DNA of 64,000 nucleotides from Dictyostelium discoideum (taxonomy: Eukaryota). Positions 3,535 through 47,733 of this stretch are shown here, piece after piece (position 1 is the first letter of the stretch; each line of letters begins with the position of its first letter). A model generated the notes under the pieces. That model was not told the origin of the DNA. It searched no databases and saw only the letters and a program-made list of their open reading frames with translations. Made by a program: the position numbers and the translations under genes. The stretch spans positions 384,001-448,000 of the forward strand of contig CM000152.2 of the NCBI GenBank assembly GCA_000004695.1. The letters run 5' to 3'.

Positions 3535-3739
3535 AAAAAAAAAAAAAAAAACTGGAAAAAAAAAAATCAGAAAAAAAAAAAAAAAAAAAAAAATATTGAT
3601 TTTAGATAATCTTTTTTAAAATAAAGTTTACAAAATAATATTTAAACTATTTATTAATTTTTATATATATGTACACTAGAATATTTTTTTATTTATTTTT
3701 ATTTAGATTTTTTTTTAGATTTTTTTTTTTTTATTTTAT

Positions 3740-4320
3740 TTATGGTTGATATTGTGGTTGTTGTTGTTGTGGTTGATAGAATTGTGGTGGTTGTTGTGGA
3801 ACTTGTTGATAAGTTGGATAAGCTCCTTCACTTTGATAAATTGGAATGGTGGCAGGTGGACTTTGTCCAACGCATGATTTTGTGAATTCACATTCATTAT
3901 AATGTTTAACCATCTTGTGAGTATAAAATGCATCAAATAGCCAACCTAAACCAAATACACCTGCTGTAAAGAAATATAAAAAGAATGTACCAACTCTTCC
4001 TAAATATAATCTTTAAATTTATTTTTTTTTAAAAAAAAAAAAAAAATTAATATTTTAAAAATATATTTTTGTGTGTGTGTTTTTATTAAATTAATTAATT
4101 TTTACCTGTGGAAACCTAAAATACCAAAAAAGAACCAAAGTACATAAGCAACGGTCATTGATTTTGGACAATATGATGATGATCTTGATCCATATACAAC
4201 TGGAACTGGTGTAACAATTGGTGTAACTAAAACTGCACCTCCACCATAGTGTCCACTACCATGATGGTGATGATGATGGTGATGACCGCTGCCTCCGTGA
4301 TGATGATGATGATGACCCAT
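3740..4320 (-). CDS. TM2 domain-containing membrane protein with N-terminal poly-His tracts, 2 exons: 4106..4320 and 3740..4010
   Basis: Minus-strand exon 1 reads MGHHHHHHGGSGHHHHHHHHGSGHYGGG...CPKSMTVAYVLWFFFGILGFH and ends at a GTAAAA donor at 4105-4104. The intron is 95 nt. The acceptor is the AG at 4012-4011. Exon 2 continues RLYLGRVGTFFLYFFTAGVFGLGWLFDAFYTHKMVKHYNECEF...QQQPQYQP* with the stop at 3742..3740. The GxHR(F/L)YLG...GxxGxxWxxD pattern matches the TM2 family. The track ORF 3736..3936 is a different, chance-open frame. Confidence 0.75.
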
Positions 4321-11891: not shown

Positions 11892-11987
11892 TACTCAATT
11901 GAAAAAAAAAAAATACATTTAGAATAAAAAAAAAAATATAAAAAGTAACATTATATCATTATTTTATTATTTTATTGTTTAAATTAA

Positions 11988-13691
<1,704 letters not shown>

Positions 13692-14104
13692 AATATTTTT
13701 TATTTACATATTAAATAAAATAAAAAATATTAAAAAAAAAAAAAAATTAAAAAAAAAAAAAAATTTTTTAAAAAAAAAATTAAAAAAAAAAAAAATTACA
13801 ATCATCAAATTTAATAAAATAATTCTTATTTTTTTAGGTGAACTTAAAATTTTGAAAATCTAAAAATCTTAAAAAAAAAAATCATCACTTTCAAAAAAAA
13901 TCATTTTTTAAAAAAAAAAAAACAATTAATTGTGAAAATAAACCAGATTTAAAAATTTAGAATTTTAAAAATAAAAAAAAATAAAAGAATATAAAAAAAA
14001 AAAAAAATTTAAAATTTTTTTTGTAAAAATATTTAAAATTTCTTATATTAATTTTTTAAATTTAAAAACAATCATAAAAATTTTATATATATATTTAAAT
14101 AAGG

Positions 14105-16297
14105 ATGCATGACACATCATTTACTGTTCATATAAAAGATGAAATTCCAACTTACATCTTTTTTATTGATACTTCAGGGTCAGTTGGAAAAATTGATTTT
14201 GAAATAGTAGTATTATGTTTAAAAAAAATAATTACTGAATTACCAGATAAAGTTAAAATTGAAATTATTGCCTTATCTTCAGATGCTATAATCGTTTTTA
14301 AAAAGCGGCAAAAATAAAATATTTGAAGATATTGAAAACAGTAAGTTCAAAATATCTTGGAATTAATATAAACTATATCAATAAATTTAAAATTAATTTT
14401 TTAACCATTATTTTTTAGATTTACTTTTTGATAGTGGTGCTACTAATTTGGTTGAAGCTTTAAAACTTGGAGAGGTAACCATTACTAATTTTTGTATGAA
14501 TCAAAAAAATTATTTTGTTCTCTTGACTGATGGTGTACCAACTGATGATCCTGAACCAATTATTCAAAAATTAATTTTAAAGGTAATATCAATTATTTAT
14601 ATTAATAAAAAATAATTTTATATATCCAAATTTTTTTTTTTTTTTTTTTTTTTTTTATTTGGGAGTTGATTTTATTGTATTAGCAATTGGAATGGATTCA
14701 GATAAAAAAAAAATTCAAAAATTGTTCCCAGGCCAACATCTATTCATGTTTGATACATTTTCTGGTCTTAGTAAATGTGTGCACACTTTGATTCCATCTC
14801 ATATTTCTATACCATTGACTACCGAAATTTATCCAAAATTTGAAAAAATTCAAAAGTCAAATGAAGCTTTTTATATAATCATTAAATTATCGTCTATCTA
14901 TCCAAAAGATAAATTTCTTGAAAATGAAATAACTTTTATTATCAAGGATAATAAATACCATAGTGGCTATGAAATAAAAGTTGGTCAAGCCACAAGTGAA
15001 GATTGTCCAAGTGAAACAACTGCAAAACTAATTTTTAAATGTCCACAAGAAATGTTACCAACCCATATTGATTTTGAAATCAAAGTAAGGGGATCCACAT
15101 TCCATGGTTATTTCGATTTAAAATACTCTTGGTTCACTGGTGATTTTATTACTAGAAGTCCAATTAATATTTGGGTTGATGGTATGGTTGGTCATGGAAA
15201 ATCAATTTATTATTTAATATTTTTTCATTAAATATTGATTTTGAAGAATTTTTACTTGTAGGAAACAATGCTTTTCATGTCACCACGGAACTTAGATTCC
15301 AAAGTGTTGCTCATATTTTAGCAACCAAAATCGTTAACCAACATGGTCTCTCTCCAAGACTTGTTGACTTTTACAAGAATGTTATCAACTCATTAAAAAT
15401 TGTGTTTGTCGATAAGCCGGGTATGGCAAAGAACCAAGGTAACCTTAGCTATACTCATGCAACAAAGGGCCAATACTCTAACAAACAACACCTAAAAGAT
15501 CTTATCACTGTTGGCGAAGCAAAGTCTTCTCTAGAATGTCATGCTATTCTTTTCGTGATTTCAATTACATTGGTTGATGATGATGTAGATTTTGAATTCA
15601 TAAAAGGTAAAATTCGAGAATCACTTCAAGCAAAAATCAAACCAATTGTTGTGGTCACTCACTGCGACGACTATTCACCAGAAGAAGCTGAAGCAATGAA
15701 AAAGAAACTTGAAGAAGAACTAAAGGTTGATAAAAAGAATTTCTTTTATTTAACTCCATATATTCAAGGTGAGAAACAACGTGATCCAACAAAAGATAGA
15801 ATTGTTTTTCAAATACTCAAATCTATTGTTGAAATTGCCAATAACACTCAAAATCAAAAAATATTAGAATCTTTGGCCAACGATATTAATAACAATAATA
15901 TAGATGAAATTTGTAACTCCTTTGTAAATACTTCTATTAGTTCAACTACCACTACCACTACCACTACTACTAATTCAAATACCTCAAGTGCTAATTCGAC
16001 TCCAAATGGAAATTCCTCTTCACCTTTATTATCCCCAAATGTTGTTGGTTCAGAATCTACTCTTTGGACAATTTGTGTAAAGAATGATTTAACAGATGCA
16101 AAAGTAAATGAAGCCAGATTTAGAGTTTATCCATCAATGACCTTAAAGATTTTGTTTCAAGAGTGTCACAAAAGTTTAAACTTTCTGTTGGTCTTTTTAG
16201 TTTTACAGATGAAAATGGTTATGATCTTTTATTCCCAGATGAATCCATTTTACTCAATGTTTTATCTGATAATATTACCCTTTCAATCTCTGATTAA
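14105..16297 (+). CDS. Multi-exon gene: vWA domain + AIG1/GIMAP-like GTPase domain + C-terminal PB1/ubiquitin-like domain; the gene model is uncertain and carries apparent frameshifts
   Basis: vWA part: the exon starting at 14105 has FFIDTSGSVG (a MIDAS DxSxS motif). The exon 14419..14582 has LLFDSGATNLVEALK...VLLTDGVPTDD and ends at a GTAATA donor. The track ORF 14659..15231 reads GVDFIVLAIGMDSDKKK... and ends with a GTPase P-loop, VDGMVGHGKS. GTPase part: 15262 onward has VFVDKPGMA (G3 DxxG), HAILFVISI, and VVVTHCDDY (G4), as in AIG1/GIMAP. C-terminal part: the last exon (~16125..16297, frame-shifted relative to the upstream part, entered via the acceptor ATTTAG) encodes INDLKDFVSRVSQKFKLSVGLFSFTDENGYDLLFPDESILLNVLSDNITLSISD*, which is PB1-like. 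Problems: there is a T5-run frame change inside exon 1 (AIIVFKK / SGKNKIFEDIEN). There is a T6-run frame change between the P-loop and the rest of the GTPase domain. The acceptor of the third exon is non-canonical. Confidence 0.5.
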
Positions 16298-16483
16298 AAT
16301 AAATTATAAATATAATAAAATAATTTTTTATGTATATATAATAATAATAACAATAATAATAATAATAATAATAAAAATAATAAAAATAAAAGCAATTAAC
16401 ATTAATTGACGCAATAAAATTTTAACTAATATTTATTAATTAAATTGAAATGTTTTTTTTTTTTTTTTTTTTTAATATTTAAC

Positions 16484-18497
16484 TTATTTAGTTGGTTGGA
16501 TATTTTTAACCATAGTAGCTAAATATTTGAAACGAGCAACACAATCTTTTTTAGATTTAGTACCGAGACGAGCTGCGATTTGATCCCAACGATCTTCAGC
16601 ATTTTTATCGACTTTTTGTAAAGCTTCTTCCAAGAGTTTTTGTTCTTCTGGTGTCCATTCAACAGAGGCAGTGGTAGTGGTAGTTTCTTTTTTAGCGGCT
16701 GGTTTGGCGGTGTCGACAGTTGATGGAGCGGTGGCGGTAGTGGTTGATTCAGTGCCATTTGAAGTGGTACCTACTGGATATTGACCGAGGTCAACTTTTG
16801 AACTGAGTTCAGATTTAATTTCCATATGACCAACTTTGGCTTTTAATTTATCATAATCGGAACCTGATGGAGCAGCTTCTGGTTTTGAGAAAGATTGTTG
16901 TTGAGTTGGTTGTGAGGTTTTAGCTTTGGCGATAACGTCTTTCAAAGAACGAGTTGGAATACAAGATGCAACGGATTCCCAACGTTTGGTAACACCTGGT
17001 GGGAACTTTTGGATGGCTTTAGCCAAGAGATGGAGTTCATCTTCAGTCCATGGTCTCTCTGGTTTAGCTTCTTTCTTATTGTTGAGTAATGCTTTTCTTT
17101 GCTCTTGATAGAGTCTGTCGGCCTCTCTTTGTTTCTCTTGAATTTCGTTCAATTGGACGAGGAAAACTGCTTTCTTATCGGTGACATTATTTTTGGTTTC
17201 CATTTCTTTGGTGAGCTCGCCTAATTGGAGGTTGTCCAAGGTGGCGATGACCAATTCAACATCTTCAATCTTTTGTGGTGGTTGGAATGATTTACAAATG
17301 TCACGGAATTGGATCTTACCCTTCTTTAATAATGCGGTTTGTTCAGCTTTGACACGTTTCTTTTCTTCGGCTTCGTCTTTCTTTCTCTTTTCTTCGGCTT
17401 CGACTCTTTCTTTTTCAGCTTTTTCAGCGGCTTCTTTTTCTTCTTGTGCCTTTCTCTTGGCTTCGTTTTTGGCATTCTTGTGTGCATTCTTTTTGTCGTC
17501 TTCTTCTTTTAATTTCTTTTGAATACGTGGATCTTTTTTGTAGGCGAGATTGGCGAGATCTTGAATACGTGCAGCTTCGATCTTTCTTTGTTTGACACGT
17601 TTCTTTTCATTCTCTCTCTCCATCCAACGTTTCTCTTCACGAGAGTCTGCATTATCTAAATCATGATCATCTTCAAATGTGAAATCTCTCCATGACTTGA
17701 ATGACCACCAAAAGTTATAGAATTTAACAACCTTATCATATGGAGTATCCATATCACCAAGTTTTGGTACTGGTTGAACGTTTGACCAACGAGAGTTACT
17801 ATCAAATACTGGTTCATAGATTTCGAAAAAGTCACCTTCTTCATCGGCTGTTGGAATATCATCATCAAATGGATCGGTTGAATCGTATGCTCTTCTCTTT
17901 TTAATATCACTTAAAATATTATTTGATTTAACTAATGCTTTAAATGCTTCATCATTACCACCTAAATCTTGATTTTTATCTGGATGAACAACTAAAATCA
18001 TTTTTTTATCTATTATTTAATAAATATTAATAAAAAAAAAAAAAAAATAAAAAAAAAAATCATATATTAATAAATTATTTTATTTTTTATTTTTTTATTT
18101 TTATTTTTAAAAACTTACATGCTAATTTAATATCATTATCGGTAGCTCTCCAACGTAAATGATCTAAACCCATGATTTTGTAATGATTAACATCTTTACC
18201 AGTTTTAGTCCACTCTTTATGATTATTTTTATAGTTTTCTTTTAATTCGTCAATGTTGTCATCATCATTTGAATCTTGAGATTTCTTGTCATCTGAAGTG
18301 GCACTAACCAAGCCAATGATTTCGACATCACCCTTTTTGACTTTACTCCAAACTAATTCAAACTCTTCACCAATTGGTTCGACTGAACGATTACATTCAC
18401 TCCAACCTAAAGATCCGTTGGTGTAATGAATTTCTCTTGAATTTTCATTTGACCATTCTTCTGCTGTTGGTGATGATAAAGATACAACAAGTGACAT
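16484..18497 (-). CDS. dnajc2: DnaJ homolog subfamily C member 2 (zuotin/MPP11-like): J domain + zuotin homology domain + two SANT domains, 2 exons: 18119..18497 and 16484..18009
   Basis: Exon 1 ends NHYKIMGLDHLRWRATDNDIKLA followed by a GTAAGT donor at 18118-18113, in phase 1. A 109-nt AT-rich intron ends at the TAG acceptor at 18012-18010. Exon 2 continues Y-KKMILVVHPDKNQ, completing the J-domain HPD motif. The Lys/Glu-rich charged region (zuotin homology) follows, then two SANT/Myb repeats (WTEDELHLLAKAIQKFPPGVTKRWESVASCI and WTPEEQKLLEEALQKVDKNAEDRWDQIAARLGTKSKKDCVARFKYL). Confidence 0.9.
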
Positions 18498-18795
18498 TAT
18501 TAAATATTATTTGTTTGTTTTAATGTGTCTTTATGTTTTAGAGAAAAAAAAAAAAAAAGAATAAAAAAAAAAAATATTTAAATATTTTTTTTTTAAAATT
18601 TTTTTTTTTTTTTTTTTAACCCGCACGCTCGCTCAGTTTCGACTTTTTGGAAAATTATTTTTAAAAAAAATTAAATAAAACTACAAAAAACCGAAAAAAA
18701 CGTTTTTTTAATTTTAGTTTTTTTTTTTTTTTTTTTTAGTTTTTTTTTTCAAATCTTAATTTCGGCTGATTAACTAAACATGGTAAATTAGTTTG

Positions 18796-18846
<51 letters not shown>

Positions 18847-20063
18847 CTTTCCTTTTTCCAAAATTACTTAAAATTAAAAAAATAAAAATAAAAAAAAAAA
18901 ATATAAAATTGTTTAAAATTTAAGGAAATAAATTAAAAATAAAAAACAAATAAAAAAATAAAAATAAAAATAAAAAAATAAATGTTATATCTTAAAAAAA
19001 AGTTTATCATTTAATATTTCCTTTTCTTTTTTTTTTTATTTTATTTTTTATAAATAATATTAATTTAACTTTAATATCTCTAAAAACAAAAAAACCATTT
19101 TATATATTTATGATCATCACAACAATTATATTTATTAAATCAAGTTTAAATTAATATTAATAAAAAAAAAATTTATTAAAATTAAAATAAATTATTTAAT
19201 ATTTTTTTTTTACAATCAAAAATAAAAAAAATAAAATATTTTATTTATTTAATTTTGACTGGATTTAAATTTTTATTGTTTTTTAAATATCTTTTTTTTT
19301 TTATTTTATTTTTTATTTTATTTTTTTTTTTAATTTATTTTTTTTATTACTTTTTTTATTATATTTCTTTTTTTAATTTTGGAAATAATAAAATGGAGAC
19401 TTTATTTTAAATGCATTTGAATTTCAAATAACAATGATATCTTGATGATAGTTTATTAAATAGGAATCATTTTGCTAATTCGATAACAAAGAAAAAGGAA
19501 ATTTAGTGGTTGTGATTTTCCAAAAATAGAAAATCCAAATTTTTTTTTTTATTTATTAATTTTTTTTTATTTTTTTTATTTTTTTTTTTTCATTTATTAA
19601 TTTTTTTTTTTTTATTTTTTTTTATTTTTTTAATGTTTTCATTGAAAAAAAAGTGTAAACTCCACGGTGAAAATATCGAAAAATTAAAACCCAAATAAAA
19701 ATCCCCAACATAGTTTCAAAAATATCCAAATTCAAATAAAATGCAATGCAAAAAAAAAAAAAAAAAAAAAAAAAGAAAAGAAAAAAAAAAAAAAATTATA
19801 AAAATAAAAAAAAAAAATTAAAAAAAAAAAAATAAATCAAAAAAAAAAATTAAAAAAAAAAAAAAAAAAAAAAAATTTTCAAAAAAAAAATTTAAAAAAA
19901 AAAAAAAAAAAAAACTTTGTTTATCACCAGATAAAAATATATCACATTGGCGTAATTCGCATACCAAAAAAAGATTTTTTTTTTTTTTTTTTAAATTTTT
20001 TATTATTTATAATTTTTATAATATAGATATATTATATTTCACAATGTGGGTATTTTTTATTTT

Positions 20064-20097
<34 letters not shown>

Positions 20098-20330
20098 TAA
20101 ATAATAAAAATATTGTTATTATTATTATTATTTATTATTTTTATTTTTACCTTTTTTATTGTTTCTATTTTTATTTTTTTTTTTTATTTTTTATTTTTTT
20201 ATTTTTTAATTTTTTTGTTTTTTTTTATTTATTTGTTATGGATCCTCATTATACTCAGATATAATAATATAAAATACATAACTTTACCGTTTGACAATAA
20301 TCGCCATCGATTTCATATCTATTTTTAAAA

Positions 20331-28014: not shown

Positions 28015-28649
28015 GTGTTTTTTAAAAGAAATCTATTAATAGTTTGATCGTTTTATTATTTAATTTTTTAAATTTAAATACCTAAGTTATAAACCATATT
28101 TTCCAAAGGATATTATTTTTAAAATTTATAATAATTTTATATAGTAAAAAAAGAATTTTATTATCAATATTTTTTTTTTTTTTTTTTTTTTTAAAATTTT
28201 TTTTTATGGGGTGTGAATGTGGTATGAAATGGCATAGTTAGTAATAAATGCAAAAAAATATACATATTAAAACTTGTTATTAATTTTGTTATATTAAAAT
28301 TTTAATTCTGAGCCAATGGGTGATAGTTTTTTTTATTAAAATTATTATTTATAATTTTATTGATTTATTATTCTTAAAAATCATACCAAAATTATTGTAT
28401 TACTATTTATTTTAGATAATTGGAAATGGGTGTTGGGATAGTAAGTAAATATAATTGTCTGAATTTATAATTGAAGCATTCTTTAAAAATAAAATAAAAT
28501 ACAATAAAATTTTAAACATTGGAAATGAGTGAGTATAAATAAAAGAAAAAAAAATTCATTTAGTATAAAATATTTTTTAAGTTTATAAAATAAAATAAAA
28601 TAAATAAATAAAATTATCTATTTTAAACATATAATAAATAAGAAAAAAA

Positions 28650-30044
28650 ATGAAAGTTTTATTATTATTGGTTTGTTTAGTTTTTGCTTATGTTAATGCA
28701 AGTTATGATGCATGTTACAATGTAGTTTGTCCAAGTAACTATCAATGTAGAGCTGAAGGTGATCAAGCTTATTGTGTACCAGAACATCATGAGTATGGTT
28801 GTGATAGACATTCATGTGGTCGTGGTTATGAATGTGTTGAGCGTTGGGATTCCTTTTGTTGTAAACCAATTCATCACCGTCCACACCCACACCCACGTCC
28901 ACCACATCCACACCCACGTCCAACCAATTGTGATTACACTTCTTGCCCAAGAGAATTTGATTGTCATGTAATCAATAGAAATGTCACTGCTTGTTTACCA
29001 GATAACCATGTTTGCAGAGATTTCCAATGTCCAGTAGGTACTCATTGTTTCAATGGTGAAAGAGGTCCACACTGTGTAAGTGATACTCATTATCCAAATT
29101 TATGTCGTGTAACCAAATGTTCATATGATTTCACTTGTAAAATGGTTAGAGGTAATCCAACTTGTTTAAGAAATCATGATGGTATTTCAACCCATTCTCC
29201 AACCCATACCCCAACCCATTCTCCAACCACCTCTCCAACTCATTGTCCATCTTGTACCGAATTAGCTCCATTTTGTCATTCTGCAGGTTTGGTTTGTAGA
29301 ACTATTCTTAATCCATCTTGTGTTTCTGCAGTAAGAGGTATCATCAATACTAGATCTTGTTGTACCTATATTGCAGTATGTGCTTCAAATTCAACTTCAA
29401 CAACTGGCGCTACTACTGGTGCTACTACACCCACAAGCACAACTGGTGCTGCAACTACCGCTGCTGCTACTACCACTACAGCCACAAGTACAACTGGTGC
29501 TGCAACCACTGCCCCAGCAACTACTACAACCACAAGTACAACTGGTGCTGCAACTACTGCCCCAGCAACTACAACCACAAGTACAACTGGTGCTGCAACC
29601 ACTGCCCCAGCAACTACTACAACCACAGCCACAACTATAGTAGGTGTTACCACTGCTAATTCAGTAGGTGGTTTAACTACTACTAGAGCAACAACAGTTG
29701 CTGGTGTCACTACTGCTAATTCAGTAGGTGGTTTAACTACTGCCGGCATTACAACAGTTGCTGGTGCCACTACTGGTAATTCAGTAGGTGGTTTAACTAC
29801 TGCTAGAGCAACAACAGTTGCTGATGTCACTACTGCTAATTCAGTAGGTGGTTTAACTACTGCCGGCGTTACAACAGTTGCTGGTGCCACTACTGGTAAT
29901 TCAGTAGGTGGTTTAACTACTGCTAGAGCAACAACAGTTGCTGATGTCACTACTGCTAATTCAGTAGGTGGTTTAACTACTTCTAGAGCAACAACAATTG
30001 CTGGTGCCACTACTGCCAATTCAATAGGTGGTTTGACAAATTAA
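28650..30044 (+). CDS. Secreted Cys-rich N-domain / Thr-Ala-Gly-rich tandem-repeat (mucin-like) protein, paralog A
   Basis: Signal peptide MKVLLLLVCLVFAYVNA. Two Cys-rich modules separated by a HHRPHPHPRPPHPHPRP linker. The second module (NCDYTSCPREFDCHVINRNVTACLPDN...FNGERGPHC...YPNLCRVTKC...MVRGNPTCL) is shared with the 32548 gene. Then tandem TTGAATTAPATTTT and ANSVGGLTTARATTVA(G/D)VTT repeats. Confidence 0.7.
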   Translation: MKVLLLLVCLVFAYVNASYDACYNVVCPSNYQCRAEGDQAYCVPEHHEYGCDRHSCGRGYECVERWDSFCCKPIHHRPHPHPRPPHPHPRPTNCDYTSCPREFDCHVINRNVTACLPDNHVCRDFQCPVGTHCFNGERGPHCVSDTHYPNLCRVTKCSYDFTCKMVRGNPTCLRNHDGISTHSPTHTPTHSPTTSPTHCPSCTELAPFCHSAGLVCRTILNPSCVSAVRGIINTRSCCTYIAVCASNSTSTTGATTGATTPTSTTGAATTAAATTTTATSTTGAATTAPATTTTTSTTGAATTAPATTTTSTTGAATTAPATTTTTATTIVGVTTANSVGGLTTTRATTVAGVTTANSVGGLTTAGITTVAGATTGNSVGGLTTARATTVADVTTANSVGGLTTAGVTTVAGATTGNSVGGLTTARATTVADVTTANSVGGLTTSRATTIAGATTANSIGGLTN

Positions 30045-30384
30045 AATTTTAATCAAAACAGAAACACCTAAAACAAGAAATGGAAAACGTAAATAAAATT
30101 TTAATTTATTTAAATTTTTTTATTTTAGATTTTATTTTTTATTTCTAAATTTTATTTTTTTATTTTTCTATTATATTTTTTATTTTTTTTTATTTATTTT
30201 ATTTTATTTTTACTTTTTTTATTTTATTTTTACTTTTTATTTATTTTATTTTTATTTTTAATTTTATTTTTAAATTTATTTATTTTGTTTTTATTTTTAA
30301 ATTTTATTTTTATTTTTATTTATTTTATTTTATTTTATTTTTACTTTTTTTTATTTTTATAAAGATTTAGAACAATTTGATGAT

Positions 30385-31288
30385 ATGACTGGGATCTCTA
30401 ATATTAATTTTTTTGATTTATTAAAAAAGGTTGAATTTTTAATAAAAAAAAAAAAAGATAATAGAGGTCGAAAACAAATTTATAAAACAAAAGAAAAATT
30501 ATTTGTCACCTTGTTTCACATGAGGCATTATACAAGATTAATTGTTTTAAATAAGTTGTTTGGTATTAGTGCATCTACATTCACTAGGATATATGATGAG
30601 ATATTGGATATACTTTTTCAATTATCATTAGGATAATTTTGAAGAGGTTTTTAAAAATAGATTTAATGAAGAAACAAGCTGTGTAGATTATGAATCTCCA
30701 GATGTTGGTCTGGCAACAATTACAATGGTAGTTGATGGATCAGAGCAGCAAATTACGATTCCATTAGATGAAGATGTCAAAAACATTTTATACAGTGGGA
30801 AAAAGGGTAAATCTACTCTAACCTTATTGGTTTATTGTTGTCCAAAATCTGGGAAAATATTACACGTAGGTTCAACATGTGGCGGAAGTAACAATGACAT
30901 CAATTTGTTTGAGAGAGATAAAGACTTTATATCAAAATAGGAAAAAGAAAAAGAATTTATATTAGGTGATAGAGGATTTGTTGGTGTTGGAAGGTTAGTA
31001 TTAACTATTCCAAAAGGTAAAAGAGATTATGAACAGAAACAAACAGATATAGATCAAAAATCAATAAGAATAATTATTGAAAATGTGTTTGCTAAAATAA
31101 AAAGATTCTTTATTACAAGTATGCCACTAAGATATAAATTTTCAGTAGGATCAATTGATATGGATAGTGTTCAAGAAAAACACCACAAAACATGGTGTGT
31201 TGTAGGCTATATTATAAATTTGTTTAAACCAATAAGAGATCTAAAAAAAAATCTTAAAAAAATGACAATAAATAATAAAATAATTTAA
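30385..31288 (+). pseudogene. Decayed Harbinger/PIF-type (DDE_Tnp_4) transposase gene remnant
   Basis: Three consecutive ORF pieces. The first, ...RGRKQIYKTKEKLFVTLFHMRHYTRLIVLNKLFGISASTFTRIYDEILDIL, is the HTH N-domain. The second, DNFEEVFKNRFNEETSCVDYESPDVGLATITMVVDGSEQQITIP...YSGKKGKSTLTLLVYCCPKSGKILHVGSTCGGSNNDINLF, holds the DDE core (DG[ST]...YSGKK...PGS.HD). The third, ILGDRGFVGVGRLVLTIPKGKRDYEQKQTDIDQKSIRIIIENVFAKIKRFFI, holds the LGDxGY...E motif. One +1 frame change near 30636 and one in-frame TAG at 30938-30940 interrupt it. No terminal inverted repeats were identified by eye. Confidence 0.6.
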
Positions 31289-31451
31289 TAATGAATTTAT
31301 TATAATCAATGATTTTTTAATTGTTCACTATTTTTTTTTTCCATATGAAATTAATATAAAAAAAAAAGAAAAAAAAACAAAAAAAAAAAATTTTTTTGAT
31401 TTTTTTTGATTTTTTTTTTTGGTGGGATCCATGATAAATTGTTTGGATAAA

Positions 31452-31486
<35 letters not shown>

Positions 31487-31730
31487 ATTTGTTTAAATTT
31501 CTATTTTATTCCTTTTGCTAATATCTATGGCCAAAAAGTTGGGAAATAATTTAATTTGATTTTAATTTTTTTTTTTTTTAAGATAAACTTGAAAATGTAT
31601 AAAGATTTTTGATCATTCACATAATTTGATATTAAAAAAAATAACCAATGTTTCTATTTACCATTTTAAAAGAATATAAAATCGAATTCTTTTTTTTTTT
31701 TTAAACAAAGTTTTTTTTTTATTTCTTTTA

Positions 31731-31787
<57 letters not shown>

Positions 31788-32547
31788 TTTAATAATAAAA
31801 TTATACATATACAAGGAACCAGATATTATTATATTTTTTTGTTTTTTTAATTATTTCACATAAAAAAGGGGTTAAAATAAAAATAAAGGGAGAGTTTTTT
31901 TTTTTTTTGTAAGAAATCTTGAGATATTATGATCATTTTATTTTAATTTTTCAATTAAATTTTATAAGAATGTTTGAGAGGATAAAAATTAAATTAATTT
32001 TATTAAAATAACCCACAATTTTATATTATAAAAAAAGACAATCTTTTATGGATATTATTTCATTTTTTATTTTTTTTTTGGATTGTGGTATGAAATTGTA
32101 AATTTAAAAAAAAAAAACTCAAAAACATAGTGTTATTAAACATTTATAATAAAAAGCTTATATTAAAGATGAGAATAATTAACCAATTAGTAATTGTTAT
32201 TGGTATGTTTTTATTTTTTTTGATTTCTTTTTTTAACAAATCATACGAAAACTTTGTAAAATAACTTATACTTTGTTGATTAAATATACAAATGGAAAGA
32301 AAGTAAATATAATTTTCTGAAAATAAATGAAGTATTTTTTACAAAAAATTAAATTAATTAAAAAAAAAAAAAATTAAATAAAAATTAAAAAATCGATATT
32401 GGTATAAATAAAAAAGAATTTAATTTGGTAAAACTATTTTAATGTTTATTATATAAAATTTATTTATTTTTTTATTTTATTTTATAGACATATAAATTGG
32501 ATTTTTCTTAAATAAAAAAAAAAAATAAAATAAACCATTAAAAAAAA

Positions 32548-35500
32548 ATGAAAGTTTTTTTATTAATATTATTGGTTTGTTTTATTTCTATTAATGTTGA
32601 TGCATTTCATAATTATAGAGCCAATTGTGATTACACCTCTTGTCCTAGAGAATTTAGTTGCCATGTAATCAATAGAAATATCACTGCTTGTTTACCAGAT
32701 AATGATATTTGTAGAAATTTTCCATGTCCACAGGGTAGTCATTGTTTCAATGGTGAAAGAGGTCCTGGTTGTTTTGATGATATCCATTATCCAAATTTAT
32801 GCTATGTAACCCATTGTTCATTGGATTATGATTGTAGAATGGTTAGAGGTGATCCAATATGTTTAAGATTTCAAAATGTTAATCCAACTAATACTCCAAC
32901 CCCCACCCCAGTTCATTGTACCACTTGTGCTGAACTAGCTTCTACTTGTCACTCTGATGGTTTAGTTTGTAGAACTATTGTTAATCCCAAGTGCCGTGGT
33001 AATTCAATAAAAGCTCTCGCCAAAACTAAAGCATGTTGTCCATATATTGCATTTTGTGATTCAAATTCAACCTCACACACAACTGGGGTACAAACAACAA
33101 CAGGAAGAAGTACGACTGGTGTACAATCAACAACTGGTAGGAGTACAACTGGTAGAAGTACAACTGGTAGAGGTACAACTGGTACAAGTACAACTGGTAC
33201 AAGTACAACTGGTACAAGCACAACTGGTAGAAGCACAACTGGTACAAGTACAACTGGTACAAGTACAACTGGTAGAAGTACAACTGGTACAAGTACAACT
33301 GGTACAAGTACAACTGGTACAAGTACAACTGGTACAAGCACAACTGGTACAAGTACAACTGGTACAAGCACAACTGGTACAAGTACAACTGGTACAAGTA
33401 CAACTGGTACAAGTACAACTGGTACAAGCACAACTGGTACAAGCACAACTGGTACAAGCACAACTGGTACAAGTACAACTGGTAGAAGCACAACTGGTAG
33501 AAGTACAACTGGTAGAAGTACAACTGGTAGAAGTACAACTGGTAGAAGTACAACTGGTAGAAGTACAACTGGTAGAAGTACAACTGGTAGAAGTACAACT
33601 GGTTCCGCTTCAACCACAGGAAGAGGTACAACTGGTTCTGCTTCAACCACAGGAAGAGGTACAACTGGTTCTGCTTCAACCACAGGAAGAGGTACAACTG
33701 GTGCTGCTTCAACCACAGGAAGAAGTACAACTGGTAGAGGTACAACTGGTAGAAGTACAACTGGTAGAAGTACAACTGGTTCCGCTTCAACCACAGGAAG
33801 AGGTACAACTGGTTCCGCTTCAACCACAGGAAGAAGTACAACTGGTTCCGCTTCAACCACTGGAAGAAGTACAACTGGTTCTGCTTCAACCACAGGAAGA
33901 GGTACAACTGGTTCTGCTTCAACTACAGGAAGAGGTACAACTGGTTCTGCTTCAACCACAGGAAGAGGTACAACTGGTTCTGCTTCAACCACAGGAAGAG
34001 GTACAACTGGTTCTGCTTCAACCACAGGAAGAAGTACAACTGGTGCTGCTTCAACCACAGGAAGAAGTACAACTGGTAGAGGCACAACTGGGGTACAATC
34101 AACAACTGGTGCTGCTTCAACCATAGGAAGAAGTACAACTGGTTCTGCTTCAACCACAGGAAGAGGTACAACTGGTGCTGCTTCAACCACAGGAAGAAGT
34201 ACAACTGGTGCTGCTTCAACCACAGGAAGAAGTACAACTGGTAGAGGTACAACTGGTGCTACTACTGCTAATTCAATAGGTGGTTTGACAACTGCTGGCG
34301 TCACAACAGTTGCTGGAGTAACTACTGCTACTGCCTCAACCGTTGCTGGAGTAACTACTGCCTCAACCGTTGCTGGTGTAACTACTAATTCAATAGGTGG
34401 TGTAACCACAGGAAGAGGTACAACTGGTGCTGCTTCAACTACAGGAAGAAGTACAACTGGTAGAGGTACAACTGGTGCTACTACTGCTAATTCAATAGGT
34501 GGTTTAACAACTGCTGGCGTCACAACAGTTGCTGGAGTAACTACTGCTACTGCCTCAACCGTTGCTGGAGTAACTACTGGTAGAGGTACAACTGGTTCTG
34601 CTTCAACCACAGGAAGAGGTACAACTGGTGCTGCCTCAACCGTTGCAGGAGTAACTACTGCTAATTCAATAGGTGGTATAACCACTGCTACTGCCTCAAC
34701 TGTTGCTGGAGTAACTACTGCTAATTCAATAGGTGGTTTGACTACTGCTGGCGTCACAACCGTTGCTGGAGTAACTACTGCCTCAACCGTTGCTGGAGTA
34801 ACTACTGCCTCAACCGTTGCTGGTGTAACTACTAATTCAATAGGTGGTGTAACCACAGGAAGAGGTACAACTGGTGCTACTACTGCTAATTCAATAGGTG
34901 GTGTAACCACAGGTAGAGGTACAACTGGTGCTACTACTGCTAATTCAATAGGTGGTTTAACAACTGCTGGCGTCACAACAGTTGCTGGAGTAACTACTGC
35001 TACTGCCTCAACCGTTGCTGGAGTAACTACTGCTACTGCCTCAACAGTTGCTGGAGTAACTACTGCTAATTCAATAGGTGGTTTGACAACTGCTGGCGTC
35101 ACAACAGTTGCTGGTGTCACTACTGTCAATTCAATAGGTGGTGCAACCACTGCCAATTCAATAGATGGTGCAACCACTGCCACTGCCTCAACCGTTGCAG
35201 GAGTAACTACTGCTAATTCAATAGGTGGTATAACCACTGCTACTGCCTCAACTGTTGCTGGAGTAACTACTGCTAATTCAATAGGTGGTGTAACCACAGG
35301 AAGAGGTACAACTGGTGCTGCTTCAACTACAGGAAGAAGTACAACTGGTAGAGGTACAACTGGTGCTACTACTGCTAATTCAATAGGTGGTTTAACAACT
35401 GCTGGCGTCACAACAGTTGCTGGAGTAACTACTGCTACTGCCTCAACCGTTGCTGGAGTAACTACTGCTAATTCAATAGGTGGTTTGACAACTGCTGGCG

Positions 35501-38500
35501 TCACAACAGTTGCTGGTGTCACTACTGTCAATTCAATAGGTGGTGCAACCACTGCCAATTCAATAGATGGTGCAACCACTGCCACTGCCTCAACCGTTGC
35601 AGGAGTAACTACTGCTAATTCAATAGGTGGTATAACCACTGCTACTGCCTCAACTGTTGCTGGAGTAACTACTGTCAATTCAATAGGTGTAACAACTGCT
35701 AGTTCAATAGGTGGTTTAACAACTGCTGGCGTCACAACCGTTGCTGGTGCCACTACTGCCAATTCAATAGGTGGTTTAACTACTGCTGGCATTACAACAG
35801 TTGCTGGTGCCACTACTGTCAATTCAATAGGTGGTTTGACAACTGCTGGCATCACAACAGTTGCTGGTGTCACTACTGCCAATTCAATAGATGGTGCAAC
35901 CACTGCCACTGCCTCTGCCTCAACCGTTGCAGGAGTAACTACTGCTAATTCAATAGGTGGTATAACCACTGCTACTGCCTCATCTGTTGCTGGAGTAACT
36001 ACTGCTTCAGTTGGAGGTTTGACAACTGCAGTTGCCTCTACAGTAGCTGGAGTAACTACTGCTGCTTCAATAGGTGGCGTAACCACTGCTACTGCCTCAA
36101 CCGTTGCTGGAGTAACTACTGCCTCAACCGTTGCTGGTGTAACTACTAATTCAATAGGTGGTGTAACCACTGCTACTGCCTCAACTGTTGCAGGTGTAAC
36201 TACTGCTGCTTCAATAGGTGGTTTAACTACTGCTGGTTTAACAACAGTTGCTGGATTTACCACTGCTGCCTCTGTTGGAGGTTTAACTACTGCTGGTGCT
36301 ACAACAGTTGCTGGTTCAACAACTTCCCCAGCATCAGTAGGTGACTTAACTACTGCTGGAGCAACAACAGTTGCTGGGGTTACCACTGCTGCTTCTGTTG
36401 GAGGTTTAACTACTGCTGGTGCTACAACAGTTGGAGGTTTAACTAATGCTAATTCAATAGGTGGTGTAACCACTGCTACTGCCTCAACGGTTGCTGGTGT
36501 AACTACTAATTCAATAGGTGGTGTAACCACTGCTACTGCCTCAACTGTTGCAGGTGTAACTACTGCTGCTTCAATAGGTGGTTTAACTACTGCTGGTTTA
36601 ACAACAGTTGCTGGAGTAACTACTGCTTCAGTTGGAGGTTTGACAACTGCAACTGCCTCTACAGTAGCTGGAGTAACTACTGCTGCTTCAATAGGAGGTT
36701 TAACTACTGCCGGCATTACAACAGTTGCTGGTTCAACAACAACAGTTGCTGGAGTCACCACTGCTGCTTCTGTTGGAGGTTTAACTACTGCTGGTGCTAC
36801 AACAGTTGCTGGAGTTACTACTGCTGCTTCTATTGGAGGTTTAACTACTGCTGGTGCTACAACAGTTGCCGGAGTTACTACTGCTGCTTCTATTGGAGGT
36901 TTAACTACTGCCAGTTTAACAACAGTTGCTGGTTCAACAACTTCCTCTTCATCAGTTGGTGGTTTAACTACTGCTGGAGCAACAACAGTTGCTGGAGTAA
37001 CTACTGCTGCTTCTGTTGGTGGTTTAACTACTGCTGGTATTACAACAGTTGCTGGAGTTACTACTGCTGCTTCTGTTGGAGGTTTAACTACTGCCGGTTT
37101 AACAACAGTTGCTGGTTCAACAACTTCCTCTTCATCAGTTGGTGGTTTAACTACTGCTGGAGCAACAACAGTTGCTGGAGTTACTACTGCTGGAGCAACA
37201 ACAGTTGCTGGAGTTACTACTGCTGCTTCTGTTGGAGGTTTAACTACTGCCGGTATTACAACAGTTTCTGGAGTAACTACTGCCAATTCAATAGGTGGCG
37301 CGAACACCGCTACCGCCGGTATAACTACTGCTGGAGCAACAACAGTTGCTGGAGTTACTACTGCTTCTGTTGGTGGTTTAACTACTGCCGGTATTACAAC
37401 AGTTGCTGGAGTAACTACTGCTGCTTCTGTTGGTGGTTTAACTACTGGTATTACAACAGTTGCTGGAGTTACTACTGCTGCTTCTGTTGGAGGTTTAACT
37501 ACTGCCGGTTTAACAACAGTTGCTGGTTCGACAACTTCATCTTCATCAATTGGAAGTTTGACTACGGCTGGTTTAACAACAGTTGCTGGAGTTACTACCG
37601 CTGCTTCTGTTGGAGGTTTGACAACTGCCGGTGTAACAACAGTTGCTGGCTCAACAACTTCCCCAGCATCAGTAGGTGGTTTAACTACTGCTACTGCCTC
37701 AACGGTCGCTGGAGTTACTACTGCCGCTTCAATAGGAGGTTTAACTACAGCTGGTATAACAACAATTGCTGGTTCAACAACTTCTGCTTCATCAGTGGGT
37801 GGTTTAACTACTGCTGGTTTAACAACAGTTGCTGGAGTTACTACTTCTGCTTCTGTTGGAGGTTTTACAACTGCCGGTATAACAACAGTTGCTGGTTCAA
37901 CAACTTCCCGAGCATCAGTAGGTGGTTTAACTACTGCTGGTGCTACAACAGTTGCTGGAGTTACTACTGCTGCTTCTGTAGGTGGTTTAACTACTTCTTC
38001 TTTGACAACAGTAGCTGGTGTCACTACTGGTACTGCTTCTGTTGGTGGTTTAACGACTGCTGGTGTAACTACCACCGCTGCTTCTGTTGGTGGTTTAACA
38101 ACTGCAGGTATTTCAACAATATCTGGTGTTACTACTGCCACAGCCTCAACGGTGGCAGGTATGACTACTGCCGCTGCTACATCAGGTGGTGTTTCAACTG
38201 CTACCGTATCATCAGGTGCCACAACTACTCAGGCATCAACACTATTTGGAATAACAACTGCTGCTTCTGTAGGCGCTTTAACAACAGCAGGTATGACAAC
38301 AGTCGCTGGTTTTACTACTGCTGCTTTTGTAGGTGGTTTAACAACTGCTGGTTTAACAACTGCTGGTGTAACTACTACCGCTGCTTCTGTTGGTGGTTTA
38401 ACAACTGCTGGTGTAACAACTACTGCTGCTTCTGTTGGTGGTTTAACAACTGCTGGTGTGACTACTACCGCTGCTTCTGTTGGTGGCTTAACAACTGCTG

Positions 38501-38805
38501 GTGTAACTACTACCGCTACTTCATCAGGTAGTGTTTCAACTGCTACCGTATCATCAGGTGCCACAACTACTCATGCTTCAACACTATTTGGAATAACAAC
38601 TGCTGCTTCAATAGGTGCTTTAACAACTGCAGGTATGACAACAGTAGCTGGTGTTACTACTGCTGCTTCTGTAGGTGGTTTAACAACTGCTGGTCTATCA
38701 ACAGTATCTGGTGTAACTACTTCTGCTTCTGTGGGTTCTTTAACAACTGCTGGTTCAACAACTCGTTCTGGTTCAACAACTCGTTCTGGTATAATAGGTG
38801 GTTAA
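32548..38805 (+). CDS. Giant secreted Cys-rich N-domain / Thr-Gly-rich tandem-repeat (mucin-like) protein, paralog B (2085 aa)
   Basis: Signal peptide MKVFLLILLVCFISINVDA. The N-domain NCDYTSCPREFSCHVINRNITACLPDNDICRNFPCPQGSHCFNGERGPGC...YPNLCYVTHC...MVRGDPICL...CTTCAELASTCHSDGLVCRTIVNPKC...ACCPYIAFCDSNSTS is ~60% identical to paralog A. About 1,900 aa of nested tandem repeats follow: TTG(T/R)S (15-nt units), GSASTTGRGTT (33-nt units) and ANSIGGLTTAGVTTVAGVTT (60-nt units). It is a single uninterrupted ORF. Confidence 0.75.
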   Translation: MKVFLLILLVCFISINVDAFHNYRANCDYTSCPREFSCHVINRNITACLPDNDICRNFPCPQGSHCFNGERGPGCFDDIHYPNLCYVTHCSLDYDCRMVRGDPICLRFQNVNPTNTPTPTPVHCTTCAELASTCHSDGLVCRTIVNPKCRGNSIKALAKTKACCPYIAFCDSNSTSHTTGVQTTTGRSTTGVQSTTGRSTTGRSTTGRGTTGTSTTGTSTTGTSTTGRSTTGTSTTGTSTTGRSTTGTSTTGTSTTGTSTTGTSTTGTSTTGTSTTGTSTTGTSTTGTSTTGTSTTGTSTTGTSTTGTSTTGRSTTGRSTTGRSTTGRSTTGRSTTGRSTTGRSTTGRSTTGSASTTGRGTTGSASTTGRGTTGSASTTGRGTTGAASTTGRSTTGRGTTGRSTTGRSTTGSASTTGRGTTGSASTTGRSTTGSASTTGRSTTGSASTTGRGTTGSASTTGRGTTGSASTTGRGTTGSASTTGRGTTGSASTTGRSTTGAASTTGRSTTGRGTTGVQSTTGAASTIGRSTTGSASTTGRGTTGAASTTGRSTTGAASTTGRSTTGRGTTGATTANSIGGLTTAGVTTVAGVTTATASTVAGVTTASTVAGVTTNSIGGVTTGRGTTGAASTTGRSTTGRGTTGATTANSIGGLTTAGVTTVAGVTTATASTVAGVTTGRGTTGSASTTGRGTTGAASTVAGVTTANSIGGITTATASTVAGVTTANSIGGLTTAGVTTVAGVTTASTVAGVTTASTVAGVTTNSIGGVTTGRGTTGATTANSIGGVTTGRGTTGATTANSIGGLTTAGVTTVAGVTTATASTVAGVTTATASTVAGVTTANSIGGLTTAGVTTVAGVTTVNSIGGATTANSIDGATTATASTVAGVTTANSIGGITTATASTVAGVTTANSIGGVTTGRGTTGAASTTGRSTTGRGTTGATTANSIGGLTTAGVTTVAGVTTATASTVAGVTTANSIGGLTTAGVTTVAGVTTVNSIGGATTANSIDGATTATASTVAGVTTANSIGGITTATASTVAGVTTVNSIGVTTASSIGGLTTAGVTTVAGATTANSIGGLTTAGITTVAGATTVNSIGGLTTAGITTVAGVTTANSIDGATTATASASTVAGVTTANSIGGITTATASSVAGVTTASVGGLTTAVASTVAGVTTAASIGGVTTATASTVAGVTTASTVAGVTTNSIGGVTTATASTVAGVTTAASIGGLTTAGLTTVAGFTTAASVGGLTTAGATTVAGSTTSPASVGDLTTAGATTVAGVTTAASVGGLTTAGATTVGGLTNANSIGGVTTATASTVAGVTTNSIGGVTTATASTVAGVTTAASIGGLTTAGLTTVAGVTTASVGGLTTATASTVAGVTTAASIGGLTTAGITTVAGSTTTVAGVTTAASVGGLTTAGATTVAGVTTAASIGGLTTAGATTVAGVTTAASIGGLTTASLTTVAGSTTSSSSVGGLTTAGATTVAGVTTAASVGGLTTAGITTVAGVTTAASVGGLTTAGLTTVAGSTTSSSSVGGLTTAGATTVAGVTTAGATTVAGVTTAASVGGLTTAGITTVSGVTTANSIGGANTATAGITTAGATTVAGVTTASVGGLTTAGITTVAGVTTAASVGGLTTGITTVAGVTTAASVGGLTTAGLTTVAGSTTSSSSIGSLTTAGLTTVAGVTTAASVGGLTTAGVTTVAGSTTSPASVGGLTTATASTVAGVTTAASIGGLTTAGITTIAGSTTSASSVGGLTTAGLTTVAGVTTSASVGGFTTAGITTVAGSTTSRASVGGLTTAGATTVAGVTTAASVGGLTTSSLTTVAGVTTGTASVGGLTTAGVTTTAASVGGLTTAGISTISGVTTATASTVAGMTTAAATSGGVSTATVSSGATTTQASTLFGITTAASVGALTTAGMTTVAGFTTAAFVGGLTTAGLTTAGVTTTAASVGGLTTAGVTTTAASVGGLTTAGVTTTAASVGGLTTAGVTTTATSSGSVSTATVSSGATTTHASTLFGITTAASIGALTTAGMTTVAGVTTAASVGGLTTAGLSTVSGVTTSASVGSLTTAGSTTRSGSTTRSGIIGG
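33090..38790. repeat. ~5.7 kb coding tandem-repeat array (15-, 33- and 60-nt unit families, near-identical copies) inside the 32548..38805 gene
   Basis: Dozens of consecutive copies of units such as actggtacaagtaca or ggtacaagtacaactggtagaagtacaact. The long antisense track ORFs over this region (32949..38222, 33026..33922, 33047..34126, 33923..34252, 38229..38564) are mirror artefacts of the repeat. Confidence 0.9.
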
Positions 38806-39736: not shown

Positions 39737-42046
<2,310 letters not shown>

Positions 42047-46728: not shown

Positions 46729-47733
46729 TTAGTTAAATTTTATTTGGTTTTTATTTCCACCTAATAATCCACTTGGTAAACCAGTACCAAATGGAAAATT
46801 ACTACCGCCACTACCACTGGTAATACTTGATGGGAAACCAGTACTACTACTACTAGAGCTAGAGCTAGAGAATGAATTACCACTTGATGAGACAACAGTT
46901 GAGGATGGACCTGATGTTGTTATGGTTGTGGTTTGTTTTGATGTTGTAGTTGATGATGTGGTTGATGGAGTTGATGAGATTTGTAAATTCTTGTCACTAC
47001 CACTAGTGATACTAAATGGGAAACCAGTACTAATATCACTACTGCTACTACTAGAGCTAGAGCTAGAGAATGAATTACCACTTGATGAGACAACAGTTGA
47101 GGATGGACCTGATGTTGTTATGGTTGTTGTTTGTTTTGATGTTGTAGTTGATGATGATGATGATGTGGTTGATGGAGTTGATGAGATTTGTAAATTCTTA
47201 TCACTACCACTAGTGATACTAAATGGGAAACCAGTACTAATACCACCACTGCTACTACTACCAGAGGTAGAGAATGTATTACCACCTGATGAGACAACAG
47301 TTGAGGATGGACCTGATGTTGTTATGGTTGTTGTTTGTTTTGATGTTGTAGTTGATGATGATGAAAATTGTAAATTCATATCAATTCCATATTGACTACA
47401 ATAAACAACTGAACCTTCAGCATATTCACCACCTGGTACACATTCAAACCAAATGGTTTTCTTACTGAAAACCCCTTTACAATTATTATTGTTAAAAACT
47501 CTACTCTCATAATTGTTTGTAAACTTTTCAACTGTTTTAATTGATTTATAAGTTCCACAATTTTCAATCAATGTACATTCTCCAATTGTTGTTGTGATAT
47601 TGTTACTGCTACCAACTCCATTTGGACATTTTGTAAATGTAATATAAAATTCCAATTCATTTTGTTGTGAAAAAACAACAATAGTATAAATTAATACAAA
47701 AAGTGTAATTATTAATGATTTTAATGATGTCAT
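46729..47733 (-). CDS. Secreted Ser/Thr-rich protein with three ~46-aa tandem repeats
   Basis: Signal peptide MTSLKSLIITLFVLIYTIVVFS. The Cys-containing N-domain (CPNG...CTLIENCGTYKS...NNCKG...WFECVPG...VYCSQYG) is followed by repeats SSTTTSKQTTTITTSGPSSTVVSSSGNSFS...STGFPFSITSGSDKNLQISSTPSTT. The antisense track ORF 46922..47395 is a mirror artefact. Confidence 0.7.
   Translation of the reverse strand: MTSLKSLIITLFVLIYTIVVFSQQNELEFYITFTKCPNGVGSSNNITTTIGECTLIENCGTYKSIKTVEKFTNNYESRVFNNNNCKGVFSKKTIWFECVPGGEYAEGSVVYCSQYGIDMNLQFSSSSTTTSKQTTTITTSGPSSTVVSSGGNTFSTSGSSSSGGISTGFPFSITSGSDKNLQISSTPSTTSSSSSTTTSKQTTTITTSGPSSTVVSSSGNSFSSSSSSSSSSDISTGFPFSITSGSDKNLQISSTPSTTSSTTTSKQTTTITTSGPSSTVVSSSGNSFSSSSSSSSSTGFPSSITSGSGGSNFPFGTGLPSGLLGGNKNQIKFN

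Follow-up and report, generated by a model that had tools for sequence, protein, structure and literature searches.

Spore-coat proteins of Dictyostelium contain C-X4-C-X5-C-X6-10-C modules, basic Pro repeats and Ser/Thr mucin-like domains (PMC3068167). The avian cysteine-rich eggshell membrane protein, CREMP, was identified by its resemblance to one of these proteins, SP75. The modules of CREMP are reported to be beta-hairpins held by 1-3 and 2-4 disulfides (PMC12723725). Mucin-type domains of Dictyostelium are reportedly modified to a large extent with O-linked alpha-N-acetylglucosamine (O-alpha-GlcNAc), some of it fucose-capped (PMC8724618). Here we describe two neighbouring genes, A and B, whose products carry elements of this kind. 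They lie in a stretch of 64,000 nucleotides (nt) of Dictyostelium discoideum (GenBank assembly GCA_000004695.1, contig CM000152.2, positions 384,001 to 448,000 of the forward strand), which we call the window and number from its first letter.

A and B are intact open reading frames (ORFs) of 464 and 2085 amino acids (aa), both on the plus strand of a window that is about 20% G+C and whose ORFs are rich in poly-Asn. Each encodes a putative signal peptide, a Cys-rich head and a C-terminal Thr-rich array, and the N-terminal part of B aligns with A at 60% identity over 183 residues (BLASTP, E=6e-66). An earlier note on this stretch, made from its letters alone, had proposed paralogs with signal peptides and a shared Cys-rich module at these positions, as is borne out here. 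With a probability of roughly 0.7, we read A and B as tandem duplicates that encode secreted, unanchored, modular matrix glycoproteins belonging to the building-block class of the spore coat.

Cys-rich modules and the 8-Cys domain

Both heads are strings of C-X4-C-X5-C-X7-9-C modules (C4C, or 4-Cys, modules), five in A and three in B, with Cys spacings from 4-5-7 to 4-5-9. The order of parts in A is signal peptide, two C4C modules, His/Pro linker, three C4C modules, Thr/Pro/His linker, 8-Cys domain and Thr-rich array; in B it is signal peptide, three C4C modules, Pro/Thr linker, 8-Cys domain and a Thr-rich array of 1909 aa. Signal peptides were read from sequence hydrophobicity (mean Kyte-Doolittle hydropathy, KD) rather than with SignalP; the signal-peptide-like N-terminus of B is MKVFLLILLVCFISINVDA, then F, with a mean KD of 3.0. 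The features of the two genes are as follows.

28650..30044, plus strand: gene A, a single ORF of 464 aa
28650..28700, plus strand: predicted signal peptide of A, MKVLLLLVCLVFAYVNA, then S (aa 1-17; core mean KD 2.66, small residues at -3/-1)
28713..28862, plus strand: C4C modules 1-2 of A (aa 22-71; Cys spacings 4-5-8 and 4-5-7), without counterpart in B
28869..28925, plus strand: basic His/Pro linker of A, IHHRPHPHPRPPHPHPRPT (aa 74-92), without counterpart in B
28929..29165, plus strand: C4C modules 3-5 of A (aa 94-172; spacings 4-5-9, 4-5-8 and 4-5-8), common to B
29244..29381, plus strand: 8-Cys domain of A (aa 199-244; C-X2-C-X6-C-X6-C-X7-C-X12-CC-X5-C)
29400..30041, plus strand: Thr-rich array of A (214 aa, 642 nt, counted from the conserved SNSTS junction)
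32548..38805, plus strand: gene B, a single ORF of 2085 aa, whose ortholog in D. cf. discoideum is a 1628-aa single-exon gene
32626..32862, plus strand: C4C modules of B (aa 27-105; spacings 4-5-9, 4-5-8 and 4-5-8)
32917..33057, plus strand: 8-Cys domain of B (aa 124-170)
33076-38802, plus strand: Thr-rich array of B (1909 aa, 5727 nt, counted from the SNSTS junction)

Residue 21 of B aligns with residue 88 of A, so that B is without the first two Cys modules and the His/Pro linker of A; the earlier note, which named the linker and the first module, was right that the N-terminal part of B has a deletion. The linker is kept in the aligned sequences P0001 and P0002, and HHRPHPHPRPPHPHPRP (A aa 75-91) resembles by description the basic proline repeats of PMC3068167, a stretch that B does not have. 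Gene A may thus have all three types of spore-coat element.

The Cys spacing places the head in a class already described from CREMP and the spore coat of Dictyostelium, that of the C-X4-C-X5-C-X6-10-C module. Its only sequence match in the PDB is the CREMP chain 9pgb_A, a four-module fragment (phmmer, E=1e-7), which aligns in two stretches of A residues ~117-175. In an AlphaFold2 (AF2) model of the whole head, built on an 11-sequence alignment, each module is predicted to form a beta-hairpin like those of CREMP, at a predicted local distance difference test score (pLDDT) of 53. The earlier note could name no family for this domain and held that a clean fit to a well-known one would make the pair ordinary; since the head lies in a described module class, A and B are fairly ordinary members.

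Several results weigh against reading A and B as secreted matrix glycoproteins of the spore-coat class. Pfam returns no domain on either head at E<=1, be it Dicty_spore_N, Kazal, or the Dicty_CTDC, FOLN and EGF families to which the earlier note had pointed in suggesting Dicty_CTDC or a follistatin/EGF-like domain. The whole-head model is of low confidence (pLDDT 53), and a Foldseek search with it returns EGF or follistatin-type proteins, none significantly (best E=0.02). Any binding of cellulose or matrix by the C4C modules of A and B would be carried over by analogy from SP85 and related proteins. Lastly, the high ratio of nonsynonymous to synonymous substitution (dN/dS) and the rapid array turnover described below would also fit a weakly constrained protein with little function.

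The same searches bear on a decidedly unlikely alternative, in which the heads are follistatin- or EGF-like binders of a secreted signal, or themselves a source of signalling peptides as proposed for CyrA, and the mucin tail is a carrier. UniRef labels DDB_G0279541, a third and distant paralog, a 'Follistatin-like domain-containing protein', EGF and follistatin proteins make up most of the weak Foldseek list, and the Dictyostelium sheath protein CyrA is reported to have EGF-like repeats with signalling activity (PMC3899956). However, a true follistatin domain consists of FOLN followed by a Kazal-like subdomain, and the heads of A and B match neither in Pfam, nor EGF; the Foldseek matches fall short of significance, the nearest genuine relatives, CREMP and a coat protein with Dicty_spore_N, are structural, and a mucin tail of 1909 residues is hard to explain for a signalling ligand. 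An animal CREMP-like protein (P0006) does match Pfam FOLN (PF09289, 1.9e-6), unlike the A and B heads at E<=1.

The 8-Cys domain follows the Pro/Thr(/His) linker in both proteins and has the spacing C-X2-C-X6-C-X6-C-X7-C-X12-13-CC-X5-C, all eight cysteines being invariant in the alignments. Modelled alone with AF2 it reaches pLDDT 78 and folds as helix, hairpin strand, helix, strand; no PDB relative of this model was found, and the domain is without a Pfam entry. It also occurs in DDB_G0279541 and in a 903-aa dictyostelid protein (P0007) that combines Pfam Dicty_spore_N (PF04562, E=9e-32), C4C modules, the 8-Cys domain and a Thr-rich tail. An O-fucosylated peptide of SP70, TDEECCPIIPICINPSTIAASTIATTTASTR, shows a CC-X5-C-x-N-P-S-T junction into its mucin-like domain (PMC11507795), and the 8-Cys domain of A and B ends in the same way, as CC-X5-C-x-N-[PS]-S-T, running straight into the Thr-rich tract.

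An exhaustive hidden Markov model (HMM) search with a profile of the shared head against 1.84e9 representative proteins gave only six matches at E<=1e-3. These are the D. dimigraforme ortholog of A, the DDB_G0279541 cluster, three multi-module C4C proteins (Heterostelium PPL_11762, a dictyostelid Dicty_spore_N protein and P0004) and one animal CREMP-like fragment.

Predicted secretion and the Thr-rich arrays

Outside the signal peptides, the maximum KD over 19 aa is 1.25-1.30 in A and B, which leaves no transmembrane (TM) segment, and the C-termini (...SIGGLTN in A and ...TTRSGIIGG in B) are not hydrophobic, with a mean KD over the last 15 residues of 0.47 and -0.45, respectively. Thus a TM helix or a glycosylphosphatidylinositol (GPI) signal is unlikely in either protein, as judged by hydropathy rather than with a dedicated TM/GPI predictor. 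Ser and Thr account for 45% of the arrays, at 97 of the 215 residues counted for A and 853 of the 1910 for B, and constitute candidate O-glycosylation sites; from this composition and the Dictyostelium context we infer that both arrays are O-glycosylated. A and B are probably best read as secreted, O-glycosylated matrix glycoproteins, of the matrix rather than the surface. The earlier note had left the choice between cell surface and extracellular matrix open: a secreted protein with an O-glycosylated spacer fits, whereas a cell-surface location is unlikely with neither a TM nor a GPI signal.

The absence of an anchor likewise makes it very unlikely that the two proteins serve in adhesion or self-recognition at the cell surface, with a polymorphic, fast-evolving stalk that would present the Cys-rich head at the plasma membrane. 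Such a role would accord with heads that evolve fast (dN/dS up to 0.61), an array length that differs between sibling species and a lineage-restricted family, as the six matches among 1.84e9 representatives indicate. However, the head is N-terminal and the stalk C-terminal, so that without an anchor nothing holds the stalk to the cell, and no IPT/TIG or other adhesion domain was found by Pfam in the A and B heads.

For a matrix glycoprotein, the parts of A and B could work together as follows. The predicted beta-hairpin modules of the head, small and with two disulfides each, would join with the compact 8-Cys domain behind them to dock the protein into the extracellular matrix, with cellulose or other Cys-rich matrix proteins as candidate partners, possibly via disulfide exchange. 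The mucin-type machinery of the Golgi would densely glycosylate the C-terminal array with O-alpha-GlcNAc and O-fucose, turning it into a stiff, hydrated, protease-resistant rod whose length may set the reach of the molecule or the amount of water that it holds.

The B array is 8.9 times as long as that of A (5727 versus 642 nt), in line with the roughly eightfold difference estimated earlier. The A array consists of ~4 STTGAATTAPATTTT-type units followed by 6.5 units of a 60-nt GVTTANSVGGLTTARATTVA repeat; Tandem Repeats Finder (TRF) reports periods of 48/93 and 60 (88% matches), and the composition is T39 A20 G14. The B array is divided into three zones.

33076..34266, plus strand: zone 1, 15-nt TTG[RT]S and 33-nt TTGSASTTGRG units, the most homogeneous zone
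34267..36147, plus strand: zone 2, mixed TTANSIGGLTTAGVTTVAGV 20-mers, TTATASTVAGV 9-11-mers and scattered TTGRG blocks
36148..38802, plus strand: zone 3, TTAASVGGLTTAG-TTVAGV 20-mers (60-nt units)

In zone 1 the matches by TRF are 95% for the TTG[RT]S units and 89-96% for the TTGSASTTGRG units. Zone 2 holds segmental repeats of ~176 nt at 98% identity, and zone 3 ends in a duplicated terminal block of ~342 nt, then the tail ...TTRSGIIGG. The 60-nt units across the last ~4.5 kb of B are only 67-75% alike (TRF, lag identities). The units of B had been described as near-identical, which applies to the first ~1.2 kb (89-96%) and a few ~176-nt blocks (98%) but not to the other ~4.5 kb.

Antisense mirror ORFs rich in Val, Pro and Ala run through both arrays, at 32949..38222 (minus strand, 1757 aa) in B and 29366..30019 (minus strand, 217 aa) in A. 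These are best explained not as genes but as a mirror effect of ACN/GGN/GCN codon repeats in the sense strand, and the longer of the two shows no signal that would be its own.

A long repeat of this kind raises the question of whether the B array is an assembly artefact, or B a decaying pseudogene kept open by its repeat composition. Mis-assembly of repeats whose length is a multiple of 3 nt would leave the frame open, and the 1757-aa antisense ORF illustrates that composition alone can keep frames open. However, a second D. discoideum assembly, GCA_054883475.1 (CM142509.1, 482455-503849), matches window positions 18573-40060 with 0 substitutions and 14 indels, none of them inside A or B, so that both arrays are base-for-base identical in two assemblies, which may not be independent of each other. 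The match implies that the two assemblies come from one strain or from strains that hardly differ. The D. cf. discoideum ORF of 1628 aa has the same zone order and the same C-terminal end, and the B head has a dN/dS of 0.47 with every Cys conserved. The agreement of the two assemblies, together with the ORF of the same layout in a sibling species, argues against an artefact, and with the constraint on the head leaves either version of this explanation barely credible.

Thirteen of the 14 indels are differences in homopolymer length and the last is a 28-nt stretch in a T-rich tract; GCA_054883475.1 is the shorter at all of them, which looks like an effect of sequencing technology, not biology. 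The exact A protein is a single-exon gene model in that assembly and was found in no other, which fits variation elsewhere without proving it.

Origin of gene B and the transposase relic

A comparison of the locus in three species places the appearance of B within the D. discoideum species complex. The A gene of D. cf. discoideum encodes 352 aa and the B gene behind it 1628 aa, whereas D. dimigraforme has only an A gene (324 aa), with ints11 directly after it and no remnant of B at the locus; the DNA of the flanking genes is 88-92% identical to that of D. cf. discoideum and 81-93% to that of D. dimigraforme. A and B are homologous at the DNA level in the 5' flank (28436-28509 versus 32294-32363, 80% over ~75 bp, ~215 bp upstream of the ATG) and through the signal peptide, after which B has a gap of 222 nt, an in-frame deletion, before the homology resumes. 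Synonymous divergence (dS) amounts to 0.41 for the heads of A and B, and to a similar 0.36-0.38 for the A genes of the discoideum group (the window and D. cf. discoideum) against that of D. dimigraforme, which places the duplication near the time when D. dimigraforme split off. B is a tandem duplicate of an A-like gene, and a young one. As such, B would have arisen by a tandem duplication that included ~215 bp of promoter, would then have lost the first two modules and the His/Pro linker by in-frame deletion, and its array would have grown and turned over by slippage or unequal exchange, with the 5' zone expanding most recently.

Judged by their substitutions, the heads of A and B are fast-evolving yet constrained: dN/dS is 0.19-0.61 with every Cys conserved, compared with 0.01-0.03 for the catalytic part of the neighbouring Integrator complex subunit 11 (Ints11). 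The arrays turn over much faster than the heads, the two B orthologs sharing only 29-35% of their 8-mers, while B keeps its order of zones and its C-terminal end in D. cf. discoideum. Counts of TTGTS units are 18 in the B of the window versus 1 in that of D. cf. discoideum, and of TTGSAS units 13 versus 0, which makes zone 1 the part of B that has grown most in this lineage; the NSVGG 20-mer of A occurs 6, 1 and 0 times in the three species. These counts support a recent lineage-specific expansion, chiefly of the 5' zone of B and the 3' part of A. The recent expansion proposed in the earlier note thus stands for part of B.

Gene conversion between the arrays is not claimed: the 60-nt units of A are up to 93% identical to units of B, compared with 76-81% for the heads, but this is a best-of-many comparison. 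A promoter hint was also dropped: elements of G-box type, rich in GT/CA, number four in front of A and one in front of B, which is no excess over the average of 3.2 in other AT-rich stretches of 1 kb.

Taken further, B might be a lineage-specific giant mucin, born after the D. dimigraforme split, whose changing length tunes a species-level property of the multicellular stage (viscosity of the sheath or sorus matrix, spore dispersal, or interactions with bacteria), and the 8-Cys 'CPTC...CC...C' domain a dictyostelid fold not described before, one that links coat modules with mucin domains and might serve, for instance, in matrix docking or glycosylation priming. We regard this combined proposal as speculative and unlikely.

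Between A and B lies a decayed transposase, as the earlier note had recognised.

30098..30360, no strand: (TTTTA)n-like low-complexity tract of ~260 bp (TRF), directly upstream of the transposase ORF
30361..31288, plus strand: Harbinger/PIF-type transposase pseudogene (HTH_Tnp_4, E=1.6e-10; DDE_Tnp_4, E=9.7e-19; both above the Pfam cut-offs)

The reading frame of the relic shifts once, near 30636, and is closed by a single stop, near 30938, and its domains can be read when both are bridged; candidate catalytic residues in the translation are D (VVDGSE), D (GDRGF) and E (ENVF). It shares both domains with the PIF/Harbinger DNA transposases (DDE_Tnp_4) and differs from them by its broken ORF. 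No credible terminal inverted repeats or target-site duplication were found in its A/T-rich flanks, where the only 'inverted repeats' are low-complexity A/T, and no Myb-like second ORF was seen.

The element is single-copy in the window and absent from the compared D. cf. discoideum and D. dimigraforme loci, and ~1.3 kb (~30045-31350), comprising the relic and the (TTTTA)n tract, has no counterpart in D. cf. discoideum, where A and B are adjacent at a distance of 1.2 kb. Since that species has both genes without the element, the duplication did not depend on it, a transposon-mediated duplication is rejected, and the weight that the title of the earlier note had lent the transposase falls away. 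Most simply, the relic is a dead copy that probably came in as a later, unrelated and incidental insertion with no evident role.

The NCBI annotation of GCA_054883475.1 joins exons of the relic to B in one gene of 2244 aa (about window 30080..38805; 11431..20140 of the locus). This fused model is a probable mis-annotation caused by the pseudogene.

Other genes of the window also differ in length between species. Ints11 (39737..42046, plus strand, two exons) has poly-Asn tracts of varying length, its second-exon ORF being 663, 674 and 630 aa in the three species, and a deoxynucleoside-kinase gene also neighbours the locus. A further Ser/Thr-rich repeat ORF of 334 aa lies at 46729..47733 (minus strand), with units such as TTSKQTTTITTSGPSSTVVSS...STGFPFSITSGSDKNLQI; the D. 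dimigraforme gene at the matching place is called at 208 aa (19469-20095 of the compared locus), and this ORF may be a second length-variable repeat gene of the window. The region around A and B yielded no tRNA and no Rfam family.

Relation to known systems

The locus offers a clean, datable example of a new extracellular-matrix gene in a social amoeba, in which tandem duplication, loss of two head modules and a roughly nine-fold growth of a mucin array all took place within the D. discoideum species complex. It adds three uncharacterised members, A, B and DDB_G0279541, to the spore-coat-like toolbox, draws attention to a small 8-Cys domain that also occurs in coat proteins and lies outside Pfam with no solved relative, and flags a 5.7-kb coding repeat that annotation pipelines mishandle. 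Current understanding is not overturned; the value of the case, a fairly ordinary one of a fast-evolving matrix-protein family, is descriptive and comparative.

The relative with the same architecture as A is DDB_G0279541 (AX4, 219 aa), which has a signal peptide, five C4C modules, a Pro/Thr linker, the 8-Cys domain and a Thr-rich tail, and is 29% identical to A (E=3e-28). It lies at a different locus (3001-3752 of the compared sequence), is without the His/Pro linker and has a tail of just 7-30 residues. Among D. discoideum isolates this tail varies by whole STTTA units (218-228 aa in total), a strain-level change of copy number within the family. DDB_G0279541 appears in no paper found, and neither this identifier nor 'Follistatin' occurs in the life-cycle proteome supplements.

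The animal systems resemble A and B in part. CREMP (9pgb) shares with them the Cys spacing 4-5-8 and, as is predicted for A and B, strings of two-disulfide beta-hairpin modules and a place in extracellular structural material; it is unlike them in having ~80 near-identical modules, VWD and C8 domains and no mucin array, where A and B have 3-5 divergent modules, and the likeness need not reflect common descent. Animal secreted mucins (PTS-domain) likewise place long, length-variable Thr/Ser-rich arrays, subject to unit gain and loss, beside Cys-rich domains. A and B differ from these mucins in that they lack VWD, C8 and CK domains and their arrays contain little Pro but much Gly, Ala and Val; O-glycans of Dictyostelium begin with GlcNAc, not GalNAc (PMC8724618).

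A close likeness is to the spore-coat proteins (SP96/SP70/SP60 = CotA/B/C, SP75/DP87 and SP85/PsB; West et al.), with which A and B have in common predicted secretion, C4C modules and a Ser/Thr mucin-like domain. In the 903-aa Dicty_spore_N protein, which has the whole 8-Cys domain, and in SP70, which shows its CC-X5-C end, a mucin-like tail begins directly behind the domain, just as it does in A and B. Unlike CotA/B/C, A and B are without the Dicty_spore_N domain (Pfam, E<=1); they have few modules (five and three), and the 1909-residue Thr/Gly/Ala array of B is much longer than the Thr-rich tail of the 903-aa protein. A and B are uncharacterised additions to the Dictyostelium spore-coat-like family of modular Cys-rich mucin glycoproteins.

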